Part shown: positions 1 through 9,778 of the stretch, in pieces | Layout: each line of letters opens with the position of its first letter | How positions within the stretch are numbered: position 1 is the stretch's first letter | Assembly (NCBI GenBank): GCA_963713865.1 | Contig: OY970208.1 | Span: forward strand, 448,001 to 512,000 | Length of the DNA: 64,000 nucleotides | From: an uncultured candidate division Zixibacteria bacterium | GTDB lineage: Bacteria > Zixibacteria > MSB-5A5 > RBG-16-43-9 | Direction: 5' to 3' | Position numbers and translations under genes: made by a program | Notes under the pieces: generated by a model | The model's input: only the letters and a program-made list of their open reading frames with translations | Told to the model about the DNA's origin: nothing | Databases searched by the model: none

Positions 1-423
1 CTCTGGGCTGAATTTTTCGATTATCATTTCTCAGTAGACCCGCTTTATCAGCGCAGGATAGACTCGGAAAAGGATATCGCCGATCTCCTGATAAAAGCAG
101 TTGACGATGAAAATAAATTCATATGCGTGGCTGAATGCAATGAGAGTTTAATTGGCTACATCTGGTGTGAAATCGATAAAAAGCCCCCCTGTTACGAAAA
201 CCGTTTTTACGGACTGGTGAGCGACATTGCAGTTACTAAAAAGTACAGAGGAAAGGGCATTGCCAAATCACTGCTCAAAAACGGGCTTGACTGGTTCAAA
301 ACTAAAGATATAAAACATATTGAAGCTCGCGTATTGTTAGCCAATCCATTGGCTACCAAATTCTGGACATCAAGCGGCTTTGAACCTTTTATTAAAATAT
401 TTCGCTATAAACTGAATAAATAA
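1..423 (+). CDS. GNAT family N-acetyltransferase (5'-truncated by window edge)
   Basis: Frame is open from base 1 (LWAEFFDYHF...). Acetyl-CoA motif A 'DIAVTKKYRGKGIAKSLL' and C-terminal 'N..A.KFW...GF'. Confidence 0.85.
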   Translation, partial: LWAEFFDYHFSVDPLYQRRIDSEKDIADLLIKAVDDENKFICVAECNESLIGYIWCEIDKKPPCYENRFYGLVSDIAVTKKYRGKGIAKSLLKNGLDWFKTKDIKHIEARVLLANPLATKFWTSSGFEPFIKIFRYKLNK

Positions 424-435
424 AGCTGGGATTTA

Positions 436-470
436 GGACAGAATCCGCCTTAGGCGGATTCTGTCCCTAC
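436..470. repeat. REP-like hairpin, GGGACAGAA family, with nested CCGCC-TTA-GGCGG mini-hairpin
   Basis: GGACAGAATCCGCC-TTA-GGCGGATTCTGTCC followed by CTAC. Relatives at ~30674-30709, 50205-50232 and 57424-57456. Confidence 0.8.
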
Positions 471-510
471 TTAGCTACACGACAATAAAGATTTTTTTAT
501 TTTTTGAAGT

Positions 511-580
511 TCGTAGCGTCCGAACCCGTGTCGGACGTTCTTTTTATAACTTTGCCGGGTAATTCCCATTGCCCGACCTG
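511..580. repeat. REP-like element (TCGTAGCGTCCGA family), copy 1
   Basis: TCGTAGCGTCCGAACCCGTGTCGGACGTT...GCCCGACCTG. Near-identical ends at 1887-1956; related copy at ~61734-61764. Confidence 0.8.
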
Positions 581-649
581 TCTGTAATCTTCTTATTAAT
601 TAAAAAATTTTGTTGTGAATTATTCTAAATTGGGTATAATATTAAAGGT

Positions 650-715
650 ATAGGTACTAAAAGCATTAGCAAGAGGAAGAGTCCTTTAGACACTTTAAAT
701 TTAGGGAAAGGAGGT
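650..715 (+). pseudogene. Putative remnant of the 3' end of a tyrosine recombinase (integron-integrase-like) gene
   Basis: Translates to IGTKSISKRKSPLDTLNLGKGG, resembling the tail after the catalytic YTHV in integron-type recombinases (..S.K...KI.SPLD.L). Lies ~60 bp upstream of the attI-like site. Confidence 0.5.
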
Positions 716-777
716 CTCGGGCTGACCCCGATTTATCGGGGTCAGAGTAGAGGAAGGCTGATCTTCAGCCAGAGGTG

Positions 778-814
778 GTATAGACGAACCAATTCGTCTA
801 TGAACAAGCTATCG
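778..814 (+). other. attI-like recombination site, copy 1
   Basis: GTATAGACGAACCAATTCGTCTATGAACAAG|CTATCG. 33/35 identical to 2139-2173, with internal palindrome TAGACGAA-CCAA-TTCGTCTA. The following bases GCTATCGGA match (1 mismatch) the reverse complement of TCCGATAAC at the downstream attC. Confidence 0.6.
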
Positions 815-854
815 GAAATAAATTATTTTTTTATTGCTATTTTTTTGCTTTTAT

Positions 855-1640
855 ATGAAAAAATTAAACTTTCAACCTTCATTTCTACAAATTTTATATT
901 TGGTAATCTATTTAATTCTATTTTCTTTTATAATTTCTACTCCGATATTAATCAGTGGATCTGTATATTTAACGGAAAAATTTATTGTCGATGAAGAAAT
1001 CATCGAAGGGTCTCTTCTTGGTATTTCGTTTTTTCTGAGTATTTTGATATTAAATTTATATAAACATGAAGTTTACAAACAAAAAGAACTAATTAAAAAA
1101 ATTAATAATGATAAAAAGACGGCTGAGGAAAAGCTTTTTGATTCATTGAATTATATTGGTAAAGTAAATGTCCAAATTCAGGAAATTAAGTCAATTTTTA
1201 ATAATACTAATAAATATCCGGAAACAAAAAATGATTTTAAAAAAGCCTTCCGTTTTCTTAGCGGGCGCGTTCTTGGAATCGTAAACACGAATTGGGTCTT
1301 ATTTAGAATAATTAACAGCAATACCCAGAAAACTATCAGCGAATGCTTTGAAACAAGGCAAGGCTTTTCTTTTAATCATCCTCAGATCAAGAATAAAATG
1401 ATTATTGAAAAACAACTTATTTTACCCTTTACTACAGTCATTTCAAATCCGCAAAATTTAAATATCCTCGTCTGTTGTGTTTTGCCCATCGATGAAATCA
1501 GCAATGATCAGCGTATTTTTATTCAAGCTATTATAAACGAGATCACTATGCTGTTTGTTATTTTAAATTCCTCATATTACAAAAACGAAAATAACATTCT
1601 TGCAGAAAATAAACCTGCTAAAAAAATAGTAAAAAAATAA
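855..1640 (+). CDS. Gene-cassette hypothetical membrane protein (2 N-terminal TM, coiled coil, GAF-like C-terminus)
   Basis: ORF 834..1640, likely ATG at 855. Markedly AT-rich compared with flanks; immediately followed by an attC-like site. Confidence 0.7.
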   Translation: MKKLNFQPSFLQILYLVIYLILFSFIISTPILISGSVYLTEKFIVDEEIIEGSLLGISFFLSILILNLYKHEVYKQKELIKKINNDKKTAEEKLFDSLNYIGKVNVQIQEIKSIFNNTNKYPETKNDFKKAFRFLSGRVLGIVNTNWVLFRIINSNTQKTISECFETRQGFSFNHPQIKNKMIIEKQLILPFTTVISNPQNLNILVCCVLPIDEISNDQRIFIQAIINEITMLFVILNSSYYKNENNILAENKPAKKIVKK

Positions 1641-1648
1641 TTTACCTC

Positions 1649-1772
1649 CGATAACAAGTTATCTCCGGTCCGGGAATTTTTCAATTAATAAAATTAAGGT
1701 GCGCTAAATCCCCTCCCCTGAATTCGCTTTCGTTTCACTTCAGCGAACTTCAGATCTACCTGAACGTTAATC
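1649..1772 (+). other. attC site 1 (degenerate)
   Basis: R'' CGATAAC (1649-1655) to R' GTTAATC (1766-1772), with imperfect inner inverted repeats; starts 9 bp after the stop codon. Confidence 0.6.
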
Positions 1773-1785
1773 TGATCTTAGATCT

Positions 1786-1812
1786 TGTAGAAAGGATATA
1801 ATAAAATTCCTG
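1786..1812 (+). repeat. 27-bp direct repeat following the last attC of module 1
   Basis: TGTAGAAAGGATATAATAAAATTCCTG; 25/27 identical to 5409-5435. Confidence 0.8.
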
Positions 1813-1886
1813 TCCTGCGGAGAAAAATATTCTATTTTGCAGTTGCCCAATCAATTGAACCTTTTTTAAGCATTGACACGGTCAGC

Positions 1887-1956
1887 TCGTAGCGTCCGAA
1901 CCTGTGTCGGACGTTTTTTTTAAATTTTGTCTGTCAGTCACTGACAGCCCGACCTG
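1887..1956. repeat. REP-like element (TCGTAGCGTCCGA family), copy 2
   Basis: Same ends as 511-580; precedes module 2. Confidence 0.8.
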
Positions 1957-1985
1957 GGAAACTTGTAAAAAAATCAAAATTTTTC

Positions 1986-2014
1986 TTGACAAGATTTTTG
2001 GGGGTTAGTATTAT
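1986..2014 (+). promoter_or_regulatory. Sigma70-type promoter upstream of attI-like copy 2 (candidate cassette promoter)
   Basis: TTGACA (1986-1991), 17-bp spacer, TATTAT (2009-2014). Confidence 0.6.
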
Positions 2015-2138
2015 ATTGACAGTTCAATTTCTAATTTACATCTATGGGGAGAATATATTCGTCATAGTCGTCTATATCTCTCTATAAGGAGCAATACCCG
2101 GTGTAGCTGCCGTAAAACTTTTATCGGACAAAATTGGA

Positions 2139-2175
2139 GTATAAACGAACCAATTCGTCTATGAACAAGTTATGT
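2139..2175 (+). other. attI-like recombination site, copy 2
   Basis: GTATAAACGAACCAATTCGTCTATGAACAAG|TTATGT. GTTATGTGAA (2169-2178) is the exact reverse complement of TTCACATAAC (3274-3283) in the downstream attC. Confidence 0.7.
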
Positions 2176-2231
2176 GAAATTGCACTGCCATGTAACTAAT
2201 TGTCATTTTGGTTCAAACCTTAAGGCCGAAC

Positions 2232-3227
2232 ATGAAATCGTCAAACCTTCTTTTCCTTGTGGTTCTCTCCACTTTTTATCTCAATGTTTCCGGGGCTCAG
2301 GGAAAACTGGATGTTCCAAGTGCCATCTCGATCAAGATTCAAACCTCAAAGGCACAGCCAGCTGTGGGAAGCGGACTGGGGGTCATGGCAGAAATCAAGA
2401 ATGTGTCCAACACCATTGTTAGCCTCCATGCGAAAAGTCTTACGCTTACGCTTCCACCGGAACTCGAGGGGCCTTTCCAGCCTTCCTGGGCCGAGTACGC
2501 ATTGTTTCCCACTGAAATGGAAACCCCAAAAGACTACTACGATGCCTACATAAGGCTTCAACCCGGAGATACATACAAAGTCTTTTGGAGTCCGGGAAGG
2601 GGAGAGAAGACAAGCGACACGCCTTCTTTCTCTCCAATTATAACCCTCGTAAAGACAATCACATCCGAACTGCGATTTCTCTTATTTTCGCCCGGCGAAT
2701 ACACATTAACCGTTAATGCAAAGTATTGGCTCGAACCCAATAACAATTATCATACGGTTACGGAAAGTACCACACTTCCTTTCGCTGCACCAGAGTCAGT
2801 GATTCTTGTGGGTGCTGCATTTGGCGGTTTGATTGCGTTCTATCTATTCCCCCAGGCACGGCGAAGGTTTGTCATGCGCAAGAAACCCCGCGAGGATTCC
2901 CTCATGGCATTCGTCTTATTTGTCGTGAAAGAGGTCACAGGTATTACTGGCTCGATCCTCCTGAGCGTAGTAGTCACAATCCTCCTTTCGCGAATCTCTG
3001 AAACACAGTTCCTTATTAAAGTAACCATCACCGATTTCTGGGGAGCCATTGCCATAGGATTTGTGGCGAATTACTCAGGGGCGAAAATCCTCGATAGGTG
3101 GCCACCACAGGGTACTTCATCATCCGTTCAGGTTGGTTCCCCTACCCCATCAGCGGAAGCAGCGGCAACTGCCGGAGAAAAAGTGCTCTCCAATGAAGAG
3201 AAACACGAGGACCGTGAAGGCAAATGA
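2232..3227 (+). CDS. Gene-cassette hypothetical protein (signal peptide, Ig-like beta domain, 3 C-terminal TM helices)
   Basis: ORF 2208..3227, probable start MKSSNLLFLVV at 2232; bounded by attI-like and attC sites. Confidence 0.75.
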   Translation: MKSSNLLFLVVLSTFYLNVSGAQGKLDVPSAISIKIQTSKAQPAVGSGLGVMAEIKNVSNTIVSLHAKSLTLTLPPELEGPFQPSWAEYALFPTEMETPKDYYDAYIRLQPGDTYKVFWSPGRGEKTSDTPSFSPIITLVKTITSELRFLLFSPGEYTLTVNAKYWLEPNNNYHTVTESTTLPFAAPESVILVGAAFGGLIAFYLFPQARRRFVMRKKPREDSLMAFVLFVVKEVTGITGSILLSVVVTILLSRISETQFLIKVTITDFWGAIAIGFVANYSGAKILDRWPPQGTSSSVQVGSPTPSAEAAATAGEKVLSNEEKHEDREGK

Positions 3228-3276
3228 TATCGGTAGGACGAAAGTATGGCAAGGGGTTTCATAAGAGTGTAACTTC

Positions 3277-3376
3277 ACATAACAGTCGGCACAATCAAAA
3301 GTGTTCGCTCATCACCTCGCTCATTTGATAGAAAAGCATGGTGCTCGGCGTTGCGTTGTGCCGCGGGATGTTATAT
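3277..3376 (+). other. attC site 2
   Basis: R'' ACATAAC (3277-3283), inner arms CGGCACAA/TTGTGCCG, R' GTTATAT (3370-3376). Confidence 0.8.
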
Positions 3377-3418
3377 GGCAGTATGCTCAATGTTCAACTT
3401 AATTCAACGGAGTGAACC

Positions 3419-3709
3419 ATGAAACATAAAGTTGCAGTTGAAGTTACGGGCCACTTTACATCGGTTTTTGTTCAACTAGAGGGTGTTGAGATCGGGCTCT
3501 CCTTTGATGGTGACAAGACCTGGAAAGCAACGAAAGAACTTGAAATCGTAGGAGACCTTGACCTCGTATTCGAAGTCCGTGGCTTGAATGGGACGCAATG
3601 GACTATTTCAATCACGCTGGATGATGCTGAAAAACCAACGTTCAAAAAGTCAGGCACCATCGAACACGATAATCGCTACTTCCTGAAGGTATCAATACCT
3701 GTAAAATGA
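3419..3709 (+). CDS. Gene-cassette hypothetical small beta-rich protein
   Basis: 96-aa ORF with GGAG RBS; first gene of a two-gene cassette. Confidence 0.7.
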   Translation: MKHKVAVEVTGHFTSVFVQLEGVEIGLSFDGDKTWKATKELEIVGDLDLVFEVRGLNGTQWTISITLDDAEKPTFKKSGTIEHDNRYFLKVSIPVK

Positions 3710-3730
3710 CCGGAAAGGAGAGGTTCGTTT

Positions 3731-4627
3731 ATGAAAAGTTTACTGATGATATTGCCATTATTTCTCTTATCCTTCTCATTGGGATGGGCTCAATCCAGCT
3801 TTGAAGATTCTGACGGAAAGAGTAGCTTCATATTTGATGAGATAGGAGGGACTGGAAAAATCAATTTGACAGATGCCAGTATCAAGATCAGCTATCTCTA
3901 TCGGAAGAGCAATAAACCCTGCCGCTATGGCGTTGAACTCTCAGGCAAAGCAACAAATGGGATCAGCACACTTTTTGAAAAAGACAATATTGCACCTGAG
4001 GCAAAAGTGAAGGTGTCTTTTGGCCGCCAGTGGCTTCTGAGCAAGAAGTCCCCCGGCAGCGATAAAGTAAAGAGGGGCATTATCGTTGATGACTGGGCAA
4101 CCATTCAACTGGGTTACTCCAGGGCACAATACAAACTGTTTACTCCATCAAAGCCCCTTGCTGATCAAATACAGAAAAAAAACTTCGATGGTTTCTCTCT
4201 CACAGCATATTACAATGCGCTCCTGAGAGGCAATGTCTTAATAGGTCTTTCTATAGGACTCGATCACCAAAGCAACTACACCTCCCTGAAAGAAATCGAA
4301 CTGTCTGATAGAACAACTGTATTTGACAGTGCCGGTTTTTCGCGCATAACGAACAAGACCGAAAAACTCCGGCAGGGGAACTTCGCTGAAGTAAACCACT
4401 TTCTTGGGAACTATGATATCGTTTGGGTGCCAGAGTTTCTACATAATCGAATCGGTTTTGATCTATTTAGCAGGTTTGACTGGAATAAGGATGACAATTC
4501 ATTCAAACCCGGTATTGGCGTCTTCATAACTGAAGAAGAGGCGTGGACCAAAGTGGTCGGTGGTATCACTTTTGAGTCGGTTGAAGGAAACCTTAGGGTC
4601 GGACTTCTCGCTGGGTTTAATTTCTGA
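3731..4627 (+). CDS. Gene-cassette putative outer-membrane beta-barrel protein
   Basis: AGGAG RBS, signal peptide, alternating amphipathic strands and terminal Phe ('LLAGFNF'). Confidence 0.7.
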   Translation: MKSLLMILPLFLLSFSLGWAQSSFEDSDGKSSFIFDEIGGTGKINLTDASIKISYLYRKSNKPCRYGVELSGKATNGISTLFEKDNIAPEAKVKVSFGRQWLLSKKSPGSDKVKRGIIVDDWATIQLGYSRAQYKLFTPSKPLADQIQKKNFDGFSLTAYYNALLRGNVLIGLSIGLDHQSNYTSLKEIELSDRTTVFDSAGFSRITNKTEKLRQGNFAEVNHFLGNYDIVWVPEFLHNRIGFDLFSRFDWNKDDNSFKPGIGVFITEEEAWTKVVGGITFESVEGNLRVGLLAGFNF

Positions 4628-4649
4628 ATTAGTTCATGAGCGTGCCACC

Positions 4650-4753
4650 CCATAACAATCGCAACCACGACATTCGCTCTTTCAAATAATTATTATAGTT
4701 CTAACTCAATGGCGGAACTGTGTGGTTGCTCGAACCGGTACATTTTGTTTGGC
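4650..4753 (+). other. attC site 3 (degenerate R')
   Basis: R'' CCATAAC (4650-4656), inner arms GCAACCAC/GTGGTTGC. R' is either GGTACAT (4737) or GTTTGGC (4747); the latter matches the next attC's GCCTAAC with 1 mismatch. Confidence 0.6.
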
Positions 4754-4873
4754 GATTTGAAAGGAGGTGTGTATAAGATGTAGAAAGGGGAGTAAGAGCT
4801 TTTGTGACCGGTGGATGGTTTTAGTTCAACAAAAAGTCAGTGGACAAATCTCAAAAACAAAAGAGGTAACATT

Positions 4874-5218
4874 ATGGCAACGGTTAATTTTGAAGTTAAG
4901 AATTATGAAATTAAGATTGCTAGAGAACTAAACGGTACGGCAGGTGGACTTAACCTAAAGTTCCCTGCTTATATTCTTTGTAAAGGAGTTGAATACCATG
5001 CTGTTGTATACGTTCTAGACGATACCAGCCCGGTACCAGCTAACACATTTCTGCCAGCATACAAAAGAGGTACGATTTTTGTTCCAAGATGGCAATTTAA
5101 ATGGTTTGTTGATCTACTTCGCAACGAGAAACCTATATTTTGCTACCTCAACAGTGATACGCCAAAGTGGAATAGTCTTTATACTGGAGCAGAGCCAGTA
5201 GGTGAAGCAGAGATATAA
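4874..5218 (+). CDS. Gene-cassette hypothetical protein
   Basis: ORF 4811..5218, likely ATG at 4874 after GAGG. C-terminus 'DLLRNEKPIF...TGAEPVGEAE'; followed by attC. Confidence 0.75.
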   Translation: MATVNFEVKNYEIKIARELNGTAGGLNLKFPAYILCKGVEYHAVVYVLDDTSPVPANTFLPAYKRGTIFVPRWQFKWFVDLLRNEKPIFCYLNSDTPKWNSLYTGAEPVGEAEI

Positions 5219-5260
5219 ATTAGCTTGTGGATAGAATATGGTTTTACATGAAAAACGGTC

Positions 5261-5369
5261 GCCTAACAATGGATTGGTGTTGGTAAAACCCTTCGGGAAA
5301 TCGGCAGGCTTTATTTTCGTATTTTTAAAGGAAGAAGCCTGCCGACTTCGCCAATCCAAACCGTTATAC
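5261..5369 (+). other. attC site 4
   Basis: R'' GCCTAAC, arms GGATTGG/CCAATCC, long stem TCGGCAGGCTT/AAGCCTGCCGA, R' GTTATAC (5363-5369). Confidence 0.85.
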
Positions 5370-5408
5370 GCCATCATTTAGTCTAATTTTTATCCCCGTT
5401 AGGCGGAC

Positions 5409-5435
5409 TGTGGAAAGGATATAATGAAATTCCTG
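5409..5435 (+). repeat. 27-bp direct repeat following the last attC of module 2
   Basis: TGTGGAAAGGATATAATGAAATTCCTG; matches 1786-1812. Confidence 0.8.
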
Positions 5436-5487
5436 AAGATAAACATTATGATTTTACGATTAAATTGAATCTGTCCCTTCCTACGGA

Positions 5488-6996
5488 TCAAAAATCAGAC
5501 ATCAACTCTTTTATCTTCACCAAATCCCCAACCAATATCCTGTCTTTTTTGATTTCTTTGACCCTTTGTTTTATTCTGTTAAATATCTTATTTGTCCCGA
5601 TCCCTGGCTTCAAAGGTGCTCTAAAACAAACCCCCTGATAAGCGCATAGAAACTCAATTGCCAAAACCTCTTCAGTATTATTGGCAATTTCCCTTGCCTT
5701 TCTTGAGGCAATAGTCCCCATACTCACATGGTCTTCCTGATTCAAGGAAGTTGGTATGGAATCAACTGATGCAGGATGAGCCAAGACCTTGTTTTCTGAG
5801 ACCAAGGCGGCGGCTGTGGTTTGAGCCATCATCAAACCTGAGTTTATACCCGGCTCACTGATAAGAAAAGCTGGCAGGTCAGTTATATTAGGATCCATCA
5901 TGACGGCTATCCTTCTTTCCGAGATACTGGCAAGCTCAGCCATTGCAATCCCCAGGAAATCCAATGCCAAGGCAACCGGCTCACCGTGAAAGTTCCCCCC
6001 GGAGATGATTTTTTTCTTGTCTGGAAAAATCAGAGGGTTATCTGTAACTGAATTCACTTCAATTTCCAAGACCGAGCGGACATAACCTAAAACATCCCTG
6101 ACAGCGCCGTGAACCTGGGGCATACAGCGAAAAGAGTAAGGGTCCTGAACTTTGGGACAGGCTTTATGGAACTCCCTAATCTGGCTGTTTTTCATAAGAG
6201 AAACTAAATTTTTAGCTGAGATAGACTGCCCTTTGTGTTTTCTTACTTTCTGCAAATCCTCGTCAAATGCCACTGGAGTAGCTAAAGCCGCTTCACAGCT
6301 TAAAGCCCCTGCCATATCCGATAACTCAGCCAATCTTTCTCCTTTGAGCAAAGTTAGAACTCCCAGACCGGTCATCATCTCAGTGCCATTAACCAGGGCA
6401 ATCCCCTCTTTGGCTGAAAGTTTTAAAGGCTTAAGTCCTGCTTTTCTCAAAACCTCTTTTCCAGACAAGAGTCTTTTCTTATCCCAAGGATCCAAATTCG
6501 GATAAAAAGCCCATCCCTCTCCAATCAATACCAGGGCTATAAAAGATAAAGGAGCTAAATCCCCGGACGCCCCCACCGAGCCTTTTTCCGGAACCATAGG
6601 TGTAATTCCGGAGTTTAGTAATTTGATTAGACTGTCAATTACCTCTACTCTCACTCCTGAATGACCTTTGGCTAAAACGTTCGCCTGGAGGAGCATTGCA
6701 GCTCTGACCTCTTCCTCGCAGAAGACTGGTCCAACTCCAATCGCATGACTTAAAATCAAATTCTTCTGTAATTTTTCGATTTCCGCCGGGCTGATTTTAA
6801 CTTTACAGAGCTTCCCAAATCCAGTATTAATCCCGTAAACTGTCTCCCCTTTCTTGACTATCTTTTCCACATATTTCCTACAGCGTTTAATTTTGGGAAT
6901 AGCTTTTTTGGAAAGCCTGACTAAAGCTTTTCCATGGGCAACTTGTTCGATTTGTTCTAATTTTAGATTTTCCCCGTCGATTGTAATAAATTTCAT
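5488..6996 (-). CDS. hutH: Histidine ammonia-lyase
   Basis: VYGINTGFG, MIO-forming GSVGASGDLAPL, QDPYSFRC, SGGNFHG and NQEDHVSMG motifs. Confidence 0.95.
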   Translation of the reverse strand: MKFITIDGENLKLEQIEQVAHGKALVRLSKKAIPKIKRCRKYVEKIVKKGETVYGINTGFGKLCKVKISPAEIEKLQKNLILSHAIGVGPVFCEEEVRAAMLLQANVLAKGHSGVRVEVIDSLIKLLNSGITPMVPEKGSVGASGDLAPLSFIALVLIGEGWAFYPNLDPWDKKRLLSGKEVLRKAGLKPLKLSAKEGIALVNGTEMMTGLGVLTLLKGERLAELSDMAGALSCEAALATPVAFDEDLQKVRKHKGQSISAKNLVSLMKNSQIREFHKACPKVQDPYSFRCMPQVHGAVRDVLGYVRSVLEIEVNSVTDNPLIFPDKKKIISGGNFHGEPVALALDFLGIAMAELASISERRIAVMMDPNITDLPAFLISEPGINSGLMMAQTTAAALVSENKVLAHPASVDSIPTSLNQEDHVSMGTIASRKAREIANNTEEVLAIEFLCAYQGVCFRAPLKPGIGTNKIFNRIKQRVKEIKKDRILVGDLVKIKELMSDF

Positions 6997-7006
6997 TGTT
7001 CTCCCC

Positions 7007-9778
7007 TCAGTTTTTTAATTGGGTTAATTTCGTTTCTTTTCCAAACCATCCGGATATTTCATCTAAAAGCTCTTTTTTATTTTTAACGACTCCGCTTTTT
7101 ATCGGGAGCGAGTCTAAAAAGAATCTCCCATACCTCTGGGTTAAAACCCGGCTGTCCAAAATTATCACCAATCCATAATCGTCCTTTTTCCGGATAAGCC
7201 TTCCAAAACCCTGCTTGAACTTAATAACCGCCTCAGGCAAAGAGTAGCTCAAAAACGGGTTTTCTCCAGCACTTTCTAACTTTTCCATCCGGGCACTTAC
7301 CAAAGGCTCGGTTGGCACTGCAAAAGGTAATTTTACCAGGATTAAAATCTCCAGGGCTTTGCCCGGTGCATCCACCCCTTCCCAGAAAGAGGAAGTCCCT
7401 AAAAGAATTGCCCCTTCTTCTCCCTTGAACCTCTCAAATAGATTGGTGCTCTGCCCGTCTCTTCCCTGGGCTAAAAAGACGATTCCGTCTTCTTCAAAAC
7501 CTGATTTGAGACTCTTATAAACCTTATCCAACATCTCATAGGAGGTGAACAAAGCTAAAATATTTTTTCTGTATTTTTTACCGCATTCCTTTATCAATTC
7601 CTTGGAGGCTTCAACATACCCCTCTGCCTTAGGAGAAGGTATGAATGAGGGAATTAAAACTTTTGCCTGCTTTTCAAAAGTAAAAGCAGAGCCCAGGCAG
7701 AGGGTTTTGACCCTTTCCTCTTCGACCAGATTCAAACCCAATCTTTCTTTTATATAAGAGAAATCTCCATTAACTGAAAGAGTAGCTGAGGTAAAGACTA
7801 CCGTTCGCAGATTTTCATATAAAAGCTGATTTAAACTTTCCCCAACCTCTAAGGGAGCCATATAGAATTTGGAATCAAGCCCATCTTTTTGAGCTGGAAA
7901 CTCTATCCAGAAGACAAAACCTTCATCCTCAGCTGAAAACAAAGCTTTAGCCGTGTCGATCAGAGACTGAATTTCTGCTACATCGGCTTGAAGCTGTTGC
8001 AGGTTTTCATACTTTCCCTCTATCTCTGAGCTTTTAAACTCCTCTAATCCGGTTGAGATTACCTCTAAACCATCTTTCAATTTCTTAAAATGATTTAGAA
8101 GCTTCTCTCCTTCCTCTTTTAGCTCTGAAATTAAGGGGTCATCCTTTTTATATCTGAGTTTGAAGCTGTCATTGGAAGAATATCTTTTTAATCCTGGAGG
8201 AATTTTGTTGAAAAACTCTTCAGAGAATTTATAAGTTTTGAGAACCTCCTCTATCCCTTTTTTCAGTTTCTCCTCCAGCCAGACCTTTTCAGCTTTTTTC
8301 AGATATCCCTGTTGAAACTTTGATTTTATCTCTCCTAATACCCCCCATTCAGTTTGAAGTTTTCTGTGATAAATCTGGTCCAGGACCTCTTTTATTTTCC
8401 AGAAGGAAAGCTCATTTCCCAAAAACTGGGTTGCCACATTTTCCAGGTTATGGGCTTCATCCAGGATCAGATTGTCTGCCGCCAGAGTTTTCCCCTCAGC
8501 CAGAAGGTCTGAGAACAAAAGGGAATGATTTACCACTAAAAGGTCTGATTTTTGTGCCTCCCTTCTGATTTTAAAATAGAAGCATCTTTGATAATATGGG
8601 CATTCCTGGTTCAGACAAAAGCTGCCGTCACACTGGACCCTGTTCCATATTGAGAAATCTTTGGATAGATCAAACCCGCTGTCTTCAGCCACATCTCCGG
8701 ATCCGGTCTCTGAAGCCCAGACTGCCAAATTTGCCAGGCATCTCTGGTCTTCAAGCGAAAGCTCGTATTCAGCCTTATTAATCCAGCCATAAAGCCGGTA
8801 AAGGCAGAGATAATTCTTTTTCCCTTTAAGCAGGGTTACTTTAAATTTAAAGGGTAGAGCTTTTTCTAACAGGGGAAGGTCTTTGAAGAAAAGCTGCTCC
8901 TGGAGATTTTTGGTATTGGTGGAAACGACACTCTTTTCATTATTTTTTTCTGACCATAACAAAGCTGGCACCAGATAGGCTAAGGATTTTCCTACGCCCG
9001 CACCAGCCTCGACTAAAAGGAATTCTCCCTGGTTAAAAGCTCTTGCCACGTTTTGCGCCATCCTTTTCTGTTCTTCCCTTTGTTCAAATTTTTTCATCTG
9101 AGAGGAAATCAACCCTTCACTCTGGTAATATTCTAAAACCTCCTCCTCCTTGAGCCAAACGTGACTGTAATTTTTGTTTGGGCTTTTCTCTTTCTCACCT
9201 CGACTCCCCTGGAAATCGAGCAGAAGCTCCCCATTTTCCTCAGGAGGTATGAGATCTTTCAGCTCTATTTTTCTTCCCTCCATCAGAAATTTTAAACAGC
9301 TGTCTTTTGACCCGAAGGAAAGGCTCATCAGCTGCTGAAAAACAGAGGGGCTTAATTTCTGGATTTTATGAATCAAAGCTAACAGAAGCTGATTAACCAA
9401 GTCAGCTTCTCTTCTGGAATAAGTCGAATCTAAATTGAAATACTGAGCAACCGTCTCTAACTTGAAATCTTTTAAGCGGGGCAAGAGTATTCTGGATAAT
9501 TCTTTCAGGTCTAAGATATTTTCTGGTTGAATGGAAATTTTTCTCAGAACATTCTCCCAATCCTCAAGGTCAAAAATGACTATAGTGCTTTCTTCTGTGA
9601 ACTCCTCTAAGACTTGAATCTCTTTTGGTTTAATCTTTTTTGAAGCGACAGGGAGACCCAACTTCCCTTCTATTTTCAAATCCTCAAGTTGAATCCCCGA
9701 GAGCTTGATTAACTTCTCTTCAGAAGTTGAATCGGGTTTACCTAAAACCGCAATCTTTTTCATAAATCCTGCTCTCAT
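7007..9778 (-). CDS. dinG: DinG/YoaA-family SF2 helicase with degenerate N-terminal exonuclease-like region
   Basis: EAGAGVGKS (Walker A), Fe-S Cys cluster, DEAH, TSATL, FWEGVD and FKQGFGRLIR motifs. Confidence 0.9.
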   Translation of the reverse strand: MRAGFMKKIAVLGKPDSTSEEKLIKLSGIQLEDLKIEGKLGLPVASKKIKPKEIQVLEEFTEESTIVIFDLEDWENVLRKISIQPENILDLKELSRILLPRLKDFKLETVAQYFNLDSTYSRREADLVNQLLLALIHKIQKLSPSVFQQLMSLSFGSKDSCLKFLMEGRKIELKDLIPPEENGELLLDFQGSRGEKEKSPNKNYSHVWLKEEEVLEYYQSEGLISSQMKKFEQREEQKRMAQNVARAFNQGEFLLVEAGAGVGKSLAYLVPALLWSEKNNEKSVVSTNTKNLQEQLFFKDLPLLEKALPFKFKVTLLKGKKNYLCLYRLYGWINKAEYELSLEDQRCLANLAVWASETGSGDVAEDSGFDLSKDFSIWNRVQCDGSFCLNQECPYYQRCFYFKIRREAQKSDLLVVNHSLLFSDLLAEGKTLAADNLILDEAHNLENVATQFLGNELSFWKIKEVLDQIYHRKLQTEWGVLGEIKSKFQQGYLKKAEKVWLEEKLKKGIEEVLKTYKFSEEFFNKIPPGLKRYSSNDSFKLRYKKDDPLISELKEEGEKLLNHFKKLKDGLEVISTGLEEFKSSEIEGKYENLQQLQADVAEIQSLIDTAKALFSAEDEGFVFWIEFPAQKDGLDSKFYMAPLEVGESLNQLLYENLRTVVFTSATLSVNGDFSYIKERLGLNLVEEERVKTLCLGSAFTFEKQAKVLIPSFIPSPKAEGYVEASKELIKECGKKYRKNILALFTSYEMLDKVYKSLKSGFEEDGIVFLAQGRDGQSTNLFERFKGEEGAILLGTSSFWEGVDAPGKALEILILVKLPFAVPTEPLVSARMEKLESAGENPFLSYSLPEAVIKFKQGFGRLIRKKDDYGLVIILDSRVLTQRYGRFFLDSLPIKSGVVKNKKELLDEISGWFGKETKLTQLKN

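Follow-up and report, generated by a model that had tools for sequence, protein, structure and literature searches.

Introduction

Integrons are taught as systems of one integrase, one attI site and one promoter, in which promoter-distant cassettes are silent. In classical integrons the outer boxes of the cassette ends (attC sites) follow an AAC/GTT consensus, and attI1 of class 1 holds ORF-11, an open reading frame (ORF) with a leader role alongside its DNA role; each classical class has, to our knowledge, its own attI. Loci with at least two attC sites within 4 kb and no integrase nearby are called CALINs (clusters of attC sites lacking integrases). Here we describe a 64,000-nucleotide stretch of an uncultured Zixibacteria bacterium from sediment (assembly GCA_963713865.1, contig OY970208.1, positions 448001-512000; hereafter the window), which holds half of a tandem array of hairpins, promoters, attI-like sites and gene cassettes. 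We read this four-module chromosomal array, with a probability of roughly 0.75, as a set of integrase-less docking-and-expression platforms of an integron-like cassette system.

CALINs were described as attC-site clusters without integrase in the consulted part of Cury et al. (2016; PMC4889954). For archaea, the searched text of Ghaly et al. (2022; PMC9668308) reports a putative attI immediately downstream of the integrase gene intI that is semi-conserved across archaeal phyla, integrases (IntIs) with the additional domain, and arrays most of which are CALINs. In delta-attI-type cassettes, attI copies within clinical arrays act as the recombination site of the unit (PMC12901181, in the portion consulted), and cassette insertion outside att sites is treated in the consulted portion of 10.1101/2022.09.11.507474. 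The literature searched described neither orphan promoter-bearing attI platforms nor an integron-like cassette system with a recombinase lacking the IntI domain; the attI figure of PMC9668308 lay outside the searched text.

Materials and methods

The genome (G000) is a single contig of 2.72 Mb with 40% G + C. Positions are those of the window, and features lie on the + strand unless stated otherwise. The surroundings of the array were taken as stretch L008 (genome 436001-454000), whose coordinates are converted to window coordinates by subtracting 12000. The docking site was represented by a covariance model (R2) built on 12 copies, and attC-like sites by a home-made covariance-type model (R1) built from four attC-like sites of this genome, the one at 5261-5369 among them. 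A regular-expression attC scanner gave 171 genome-wide matches that included one known site and was dropped as non-specific.

Sequence collections were scanned with a degenerate core pattern of the docking site that fixes 21 positions; the scan of metagenomes gave at least 119 contigs and that of species representatives 43 stretches. Linkage to recombinase genes was surveyed by tblastn at 123 docking sites, five of which are duplicated between two collections. Before promoter enrichment was counted, these five were removed, along with eleven sites whose upstream sequence fell short of 330 nt. R1 was run on 80 metagenome loci and on 48 further sources (44 species-representative or order-genome loci with a docking site and four loci of family genomes).

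Results

The array lies in a 12.6-kb slot bordered by an ABC-transporter/HlyD operon and a histidine ammonia-lyase-type gene, and consists of four tandem modules, of which A and B lie upstream of the window and 1 and 2 within it. A preliminary description of the window had claimed two tandem modules and read them as a distributed integrase-less docking system. Both modules are real and that reading was largely right; modules A and B had been missed. Four copies of the terminator-like hairpin (up to 6 mismatches of 30) were found in the genome, all on the + strand within 9 kb (genome positions 440941, 446931, 448511 and 449887). Genome-wide searches for the 35-bp site (up to 8 mismatches) and for the 27-bp tail (up to 6 mismatches) found each at its two places in the window only.

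The repeats described between modules 1 and 2 are real and lie where they had been placed. The hairpins at 508-546 and 1884-1922, which had been called repetitive extragenic palindromes (REP), are 92% identical over 39 nt and rank top in a terminator-like scan (match at 515-539 in module 1, with a T run). The 35-bp site agrees at 33/35 positions over 778-812 and is 90% identical over 42 nt (778-819 and 2139-2180), and the tails at 1786-1812 and 5409-5435 agree at 25/27. The promoters named in the preliminary description are the two best promoter-like matches on the + strand of 380-5520: the sigma-70-like sequence TTGTGA-16-TATAAT of module 1 (613-640) agrees with the consensus at 10/12 positions, and TTGACA-17-TATTAT of module 2 (1986-2014), the best match of the region, at 11/12. 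A predicted cassette promoter therefore stands upstream of the attI-like site at both 613-640 and 1986-2014, and sequences homologous to the promoter of module 2 are present in module A and in G003, a genome of another genus of the same family. The overall count of promoter-like matches in 380-5520, 14 against 11.5 (sd 3.2) in shuffles, is no higher than expected by chance.

The attI-like docking sites occupy 758-822 in module 1 (R2 60.3 bits, crossover G at 808) and 2117-2183 in module 2 (R2 71.6 bits, crossover G at 2169; both in alignment A5). In module 1 the site contains a hairpin at 780-801 (-7.5 kcal/mol, z -4.1), and the box after the crossover G is mutated (GCTAT, 808-812). In module 2 a short ORF (2161-2199) begins within the site.

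Behind the module 2 site stand three cassettes. Cassette 2a (2170-3376) consists of ORF 2232-3227, which encodes a signal peptide and membrane segments and belongs to no family (its product had no match in Pfam or PADLOC), and an attC-like site at 3275-3376. Cassette 2b (3377-4743) has two ORFs (3419-3709 and 3731-4627), followed by a decayed attC-like site (4648-4743) that has retained the inner stem and whose outer 3' box reads GGTACAT (4737-4743). Cassette 2c (4744-5369) contains ORF 4874-5218 and an attC-like site at 5261-5369. As single-stranded DNA, 3268-3385 and 5252-5375 fold into R/L-box hairpins of -19.7 kcal/mol (z -2.8) and -23.3 kcal/mol (z -3.4), and 4640-4750 into the inner stem only (z +0.4). 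By R1 and the folds, at least two attC-like sites of module 2 fall within 4 kb (3275-3376, 5261-5369 and the decayed 4648-4743), with integrase genes absent from the vicinity; no recombinase gene was found between genome 436 and 456 kb. The module ends in a tail (5363-5435) that runs from the GTTATAC box of the last attC-like site to the 27-bp repeat.

Module 1 carries a single cargo (809-1664) with ORF 855-1640, which encodes about 261 aa of no family; AAGTTATCT comes immediately after the end box CCGATAAC (1648-1655) of the cargo. Cassette starts are complementary to cassette ends in both modules, as had been noted, exactly (10/10) between 2169-2178 and 3275-3284 and with one mismatch between 808-816 and 1647-1655. 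The accompanying claim that module 1 ends in attC is not confirmed, since 1640-1780 yields no attC-like fold (z -1.2) and no R1 match. The tail and spacer that follow (1786-1886) are homologous throughout to the junction of modules A and B.

Unit ends without an inner stem were seen twice. The last unit in window 1648-1664 ends in GATAAC-AA-GTTATC, with nothing of the inner stem between box and inverse, and that of a further array (L065, about 7965-7985) in GGCATTAAC-GTG-GTTAATGC; box and inverse are 2-3 bases apart in the two cases. Such ends may be minimal or collapsed forms of a cassette end, or of a different nature.

The 35-bp site behaves as an attI-like site at which cassettes dock, as had been proposed: copies are linked to recombinase genes, homology ends at G↓TT (the arrow marks the crossover), and cassette starts pair with the ends of their own cassettes. 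The conserved site consists of two palindromic boxes followed by ..GAACAAG↓TTA. It is also dispersed, as the preliminary description held, with five strong R2 copies in this genome (genome 441123, 448758, 450117, 523640 and 1899061) and weaker ones besides; every copy examined in the array stands at the head of a separate set of cassettes, and the genome lacks an intact integrase gene. R2 matched 18 of 150 sampled genomes of the class, all from one order (6/8 in family f1, 2/4 in f4 and 9/17 in f2), and none of 120 genomes of other families. A 25-nt core (up to 3 mismatches) was found in none of 60 relatives, a blank that marks a sensitivity limit because BLAST and R2 found diverged copies.

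Beyond the class, the 43 stretches from species representatives bear the bacterial labels Zixiibacteriota, Ignavibacteria, WOR-3, Stahlbacteria, Planctomycetota (including a complete Brocadia genome), Thermodesulfatator, Spirochaetota, Nitrospinota, Clostridia and others, and the archaeal labels Methanosarcinales, Methanoperedens, Hydrothermarchaeota, Thermococci and Acidilobaceae. The pattern scan of viral contigs gave 0 matches. Across 117 sites, information content was 0.62 bits per position in the 30 unforced upstream positions, compared with 0.16 at +12..+45. Conservation falls away after G↓TTA and about 8 bases; after the crossover G, only the GGCGAAAT-like stretch at +4..+11 is retained, and this stretch is the outer box common to cassette ends.

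Two or more co-oriented docking sites per locus were present in 7 of 100 loci (L102, L112, L150, L161, L179, L180 and L225). In L150 the order is recombinase, site, one gene, site, and in L242 the recombinase gene comes after a decayed attC-like site and a consensus promoter; from these layouts it follows that a unit of payload plus docking site sits cassette-like in arrays. The head units of this genome have the corresponding extent: each spans the interval between the G↓TT of an attC-like site and that of the docking site which comes next. Their tandem order may reflect either local duplication of an enzyme-less head or insertion of units by recombination.

At least three further copies in this genome lie outside the slot. 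The one at genome 1899061-1899124 stands just behind an apparent 3' end of a tRNA-like gene and before a ParB-like gene pair, and a copy at genome 856888-856961 has GTTT in place of GTTA. The third heads another promoter, docking-site and cassette array (L065 4517-7900, genome 523.5-526.9 kb), with cassettes for a trypsin-like protease, then for a DNA methyltransferase and a 276-aa product, then for a small zinc-ribbon protein; the methyltransferase cassette is restriction-modification-like, and start/end complementarity in the array is 8/8 and 9/9.

The attC-like ends were examined across loci with R1. In the 80 metagenome loci it found 40 sites, of which 34 are co-oriented with and downstream of the docking site, and in the 48 further sources 19 sites, all co-oriented and 16 downstream; sites downstream of docking sites were also found in two other genomes (G016 and G030). 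The alignment of these 40 sites shows 94.6% pairing in the inner helix, where 9/10 pairs have changed on both sides; the covariation score of this helix is 0.492, compared with 0.190 in shuffles (0/500 as high), and slid controls scored far lower. In 38 loci the opening 13 bases of the cassette were compared with the 13 bases that end at the outer box of the closest attC-like site detected downstream, and a mean of 9.55/13 positions pair. With the TAAC/GTTA core set aside, the outer 9 positions still pair at a mean of 5.61, compared with 3.60 (sd 0.21) after permutation, a value that 0/2000 permutations reach. Start/end pairing of this kind is the footprint that would be expected of circular cassettes entering at the G↓TT of the docking site.

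R1 also matched two sites at 385.5 kb of this genome, where two decayed attC-like sites flank a cassette for a 97-aa membrane protein (L072 5551-6115, genome 385.5-386.1 kb). This cassette lies between metal-cluster genes and an ABC transporter, with no docking site seen there.

A copy of the docking site beside a recombinase gene, which the preliminary description had proposed to look for, is a recurrent arrangement. A tyrosine recombinase gene or a piece of one lies directly upstream, on the same strand, at 32 of the 123 sites surveyed: 14 were scored as near-full (two of these are actually short pieces), 13 are internal fragments and five are cut by a contig end. At 52 sites at least 1500 nt upstream contained no recombinase, and 39 sites with less than 1500 nt upstream are uninformative. 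The same arrangement occurs in one genome of the order (G024). The matched part of the recombinase ends 14-153 nt before the crossover G, with one exception at 1263 nt, and the reading frames that were traced stop 71-118 nt before it.

The full-length linked recombinases (373-385 aa) score 232-238 bits on the XerA-type model NF040815 of NCBIfam (cut-off 220) and 216-222 bits, in two stretches, on the integron integrase model TIGR02249 (cut-off 265). Aligned with three canonical IntIs of the class, they lack the roughly 41-residue IntI-specific insertion and have an N-terminal extension of about 95 residues; about 271 codons of the near-full genes can be aligned with IntI residues 34-360, and the gap is visible. 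Of the solved structures, XerA (4a8e) scored 145 bits in one stretch and VchIntIA (2a3v) 146 bits in two, so that the two are equally near. With a linked recombinase of XerA-type score and without the IntI domain, the system is integron-like and not a classical integron. The partner found elsewhere is not a classical IntI, and it lies upstream of the site on the same strand; the supply of an enzyme in trans that had been proposed for the array is hypothetical.

Relatives of this enzyme are numerous. Among 8000 metagenome candidates, 7739 scored at E <= 1e-30, and the top 120 of the 8000 are 55-100% identical to the query (the first is the query itself), under names such as 'site-specific tyrosine recombinase/integron integrase' and 'XerD'. 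All relatives in the plasmid collection are below 60% identity, the best, on Bacteroidota plasmids, at 38.7%. Full-length plasmid relatives with 34-39% identity that includes the N-terminal part were seen in Persicobacter, Rufibacter, Chryseobacterium and Fulvitalea, some of them annotated as 'xerA' or 'integron integrase'.

In this genome the best matches to the linked recombinase are two Xer-type genes of about 30% identity and an IntI fragment. No match to TIGR02249 reaches its cut-off, and the only trace of a full IntI is this 97-aa C-terminal fragment, 300 kb away, which gives 106.7 bits to TIGR02249 positions 247-315 and is about 80% identical to canonical IntIs of the class, compared with 41-58% to the linked recombinases. 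A SnoaL-type cassette with an attC-like site (about L003 2393-2468) follows it in this locus (L003 1417-2600, genome about 753.8-755.0 kb), and the 1.2-kb insert is bounded by a direct repeat of ~33 nt, a duplication of the 3' end of a CcdA-like gene that lies on the opposite strand. Elsewhere in the genome (L005 1450-2400, genome about 1580 kb) a gene of xerC type, located between topA and hslVU, is broken into two frames, one of 260 aa and a 3' piece, by a frameshift or a sequencing error.

The array might on this ground be debris of a classical integron, that is, a CALIN whose cassettes were inserted by a canonical IntI and whose conserved site is the attI of that enzyme. The IntI fragment at genome 753.9 kb with its attC-bearing SnoaL cassette fits such an origin, as do the outer AAC/GTT boxes and covarying inner stem of the attC-like sites, and class 1 IntI accepts very diverse attC sites (PMC9668308, searched text). 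We nevertheless consider this improbable: the IntI domain is missing from all genes adjacent to the 123 sites, R2 has no match beside six canonical intI loci of the class or beside the fragment in this genome, and canonical intI occurs in 2 of 34 genomes of the order, compared with a docking site in at least 17 of 29 sampled.

The origin of platforms without an enzyme can be traced in module 1. Directly after its promoter, 93 nt before the crossover G, lies a recombinase C-terminal remnant of 22 codons (IGTKSISKRKSPLDTLNLGKGG, 650-715), recognised by tblastn and translation and 14/22 identical to the C-terminus of the linked recombinase in L246 (E 9e-8, in a search of eight heads). No significant recombinase remnant was found in the heads of modules A, B and 2 or of the 523-kb site. 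The preliminary description had supposed copies of an empty landing pad; the remnant in module 1 and the internal remnants at 13 of 123 sites elsewhere argue otherwise, and orphan sites therefore arise by gene loss from recombinase-attI units. From its sequence, the array of this genome probably derives from such units, now without the enzyme. Promoters seem to go with the orphan state: matches of at least 10/12 within 300 nt upstream stand before 23 of 80 orphan or unknown sites, compared with 2/27 linked sites, 6/107 antisense and 8/76 downstream controls.

The two modules upstream of the window have the same order of parts. The hairpin of module A (L008 4940) is followed by the promoter TTGACA-17-TATAAT and by a docking site of two tandem boxes ending in ..AACCAAG↓TTAAAT (type-A). 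Its cassette is a four-gene operon (L008 5383-10663, genome 441.4-446.7 kb) for DruA (DUF4338; PF14236, E 5e-89), an 850-aa protein-kinase/ORC-CDC6-like ATPase (PADLOC CARF_STK_AAA, E 1.7e-62), a CARF-like protein and a membrane protein, and it looks like a defence system on a single 5.5-kb cassette. The attC-like site at its end (L008 10694-10808) has an outer box that pairs with the cassette start at 17/18 positions. In module B, the hairpin (L008 10932) precedes a promoter-like sequence and a degenerate site, behind which stand genes for a nitroreductase and a GNAT protein. Module B ends in a perfect 15+15 hairpin after the GNAT gene (436-466; inverted repeat I13, direct repeat D11, alignment A1) that resembles the hairpin within the tails. 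When the five inter-module stretches are aligned, tail, spacer, hairpin, GCCCGACCT block and promoter are homologous throughout; the tail behind module A resembles that behind module 2, and the likeness starts with the GTTATAC box of the final attC-like site. An Rfam scan of the window returned one tRNA only, and nothing in the studied region.

The slot was followed in relatives by its borders; orthologs of the histidine ammonia-lyase-type gene (5488-6996, - strand) have 86-93% amino-acid identity and form the slot border in G001, G003, G005 and G004. In G001, of the same genus, the flanks are about 114 bp apart, with a short head relic between them. In G003 a 7.2-kb multi-module array occupies the same locus. 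It contains a docking site ..ACAAACAAG↓TTAAGG, a cassette of methyltransferase type whose end is attC-like, a gene orthologous to that of module 1 (77.7% nucleotide identity, compared with 76-77% in the flanks) and a further hairpin-promoter head. The type-A docking site of G003 is 83.7% identical to that of module A, and homology between the genera stops at G↓TTAA: the DruA operon follows in our genome and restriction-modification-like genes, a function read from the sequence without a family search, in G003. Yet other sequences follow the same type-A site in G006 and G008. Different cassettes at one site in four genomes therefore point to turnover after the genera split.

This turnover bears on the possibility that the platforms are pure fossils, dead stumps inactive in cis and in trans that now serve as ordinary promoter-gene units. 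Much is consistent with that: the recombinase remnants in module 1 and at 13/123 sites, the decayed boxes at 808-812 and 4737-4743, the degenerate site of module B, a module 1 cargo conserved between genera like its flanks, and a single-contig genome of 2.72 Mb with no recombinase. We regard it as possible yet rather doubtful, given that the four genomes differ in their cassettes at the same site and several start/end pairs are still fully complementary (8/8 to 10/10). A fossil state would touch present activity alone and fits the origin from recombinase-attI units set out above.

Most docking-site copies contain a GGAG-type sequence, a hairpin and an ATG, and the element could be read not as a DNA recombination site but as an RNA leader, in which the ribosome-binding region is structured and preceded by a short ORF. 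The three elements are so placed that the hairpin could join them, short ORFs cross the junction, and the hairpin shows modest covariation (83% paired, three pairs with changes on both sides, 6/500 shuffles as high). This explanation is very unlikely, as the type-A and 523-kb copies have no ATG, the site adjoins a recombinase gene, homology stops at G↓TT, and the start of a cassette is complementary to the end of the same cassette. A leader role could exist alongside the DNA role.

That the repeats are an assembly artefact or chance similarity is hardly credible. The metagenomic origin of the genome speaks for it; against it, the copies are 27-42 nt long and 90-93% identical, thus non-identical, and G003 has a multi-module array at the same locus. 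Two public DNA runs of one study contain 22% and 6% of the words of the region, as short low-depth contigs that give no cover across most repeats; one of them bridges 1748-1909, from tail to next head, without a difference. No RNA run was among the public runs listed as containing the region. In run X2 a low-depth contig contains the 35-bp site (window 777-813) with 3 differences and other DNA on both sides, presumably from another organism with another cassette.

Discussion

Each module follows one order of parts: terminator-like hairpins, a strong predicted sigma-70-type promoter, a leader, an attI-like site and one or more cassettes, in general with attC-like ends. The hairpins would stop incoming transcription and so insulate each module from upstream, and the promoter would drive the leader and the cassettes docked at the site. 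Site-specific recombination at G↓TT probably brought the cassettes into the docking site; such entry would account both for the pairing of their first bases with the outer box of their own attC-like end and for tails that begin exactly at the G↓TT of the last attC-like site. Insertion would be catalysed by a recombinase of the linked kind, a tyrosine recombinase of 370-385 aa without the IntI domain and with an N-terminal extension of ~95 aa. In complete elements the gene of this linked enzyme lies on the strand of the site and stops roughly 60-125 nt ahead of the crossover G. In the ancestor of these platforms the recombinase gene was probably deleted, with hairpin and promoter now in its place, and the head would then have multiplied locally. 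The GGAG-type sequence, hairpin and ATG could initiate translation of a short ORF extending into the cassette nearest the site, a start that would be optional because type-A copies lack the ATG. Activity today would need an enzyme from outside the genome, and it is doubtful because the genome encodes no recombinase of this kind and several boxes are mutated.

More broadly, the sites may belong to a cross-domain capture system run by a recombinase intermediate between Xer and IntI, whose orphan sites gain promoters and terminators, multiply and are served in trans; we hold the chances of this for about even.

Several observations weigh against the array being a set of such platforms. The genome has no linked recombinase gene in its 2.72 Mb, and among 34 genomes of the order only G024 has one, directly before a docking site. 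A recombinase without the IntI domain would have to handle folded attC-like sites, for which its role is putative. R1 scores 3271-3381 at no more than 15.9 bits (E 0.16, filters off), the model is narrow and finds nothing near classical intI genes, and the pair counts come from an alignment fitted to the model, which favours structure. Conservation of the site core is partly by construction, because the pattern fixes 21 positions, and taxon labels may be wrong, because many contigs are from binned metagenome genomes. With boxes decayed, the array may be static now; the contigs of the two public runs show no alternative joints at low cover, so that recombination was unobserved there.

The array suggests that docking sites can outlive their enzyme, gain promoters and stand in tandem, and that tandem platforms place several cassettes promoter-proximal, some of which look like defence systems. 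One docking-site sequence among distant bacteria and archaea points to a common currency of cassette exchange. If the broader, cross-domain reading is true, many tool-called CALINs in sediment and hydrothermal phyla would be promoter-driven orphan platforms, with rare enzyme-bearing elements serving in trans, and their recombinase would lack the domain thought necessary for attC recombination. Such an enzyme bears on how single-strand attC recombination evolved from Xer-type recombination, a question that the consulted part of PMC4792948 addresses experimentally. A concrete candidate enzyme, a docking site and attC-like partners are now in hand.

Xer-type recombinases resemble the linked enzyme in sequence (NF040815 is its best NCBIfam model, and solved XerA gives 145 bits in one stretch), and VchIntIA is as close, at 146 bits in two stretches. 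The linked gene differs in its extra N-terminal region and in adjoining cassette arrays, not a dif-type site. Xer/dif systems have a single dif-type site, with two inverted arms around a 6-8-bp centre, and no cargo genes; here there are multiple sites and variable genes with attC-like ends, and homology breaks downstream of the palindromic box, not within it.

Delta-attI-type cassettes, as presented in the consulted portion of PMC12901181, are alike in that the head units of our genome run from an attC-like G↓TT to the next docking-site G↓TT; they differ in belonging to clinical class 1/2 integrons with IntI1 and in attI copies without promoter or terminators. Archaeal integrons in the searched text of PMC9668308 have the additional IntI domain, unlike the genes beside the present site, although their attI and the present docking site may be identical.

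Module 2 resembles a CALIN, with at least two attC-like sites within 4 kb and integrase absent nearby, and departs from one in that the cluster is headed by a docking site and promoter and, once in the array, by a recombinase stump. With classical integrons the array shares an attI-like site after a predicted promoter, a probable G↓TT crossover, imperfectly palindromic, attC-like cassette ends with outer AAC/GTT boxes and an inner stem conserved in structure, and a short ORF that starts inside the docking site (here 2161-2199). An IntI next to the array, as in classical integrons, is present neither in this genome nor at the linked genes elsewhere. Here, instead, the linked recombinase is extended at its N-terminus, is without the IntI domain and is encoded in the direction of the cassettes, several docking sites stand in one genome, most without an enzyme gene, and the docking site is nearly the same across phyla.

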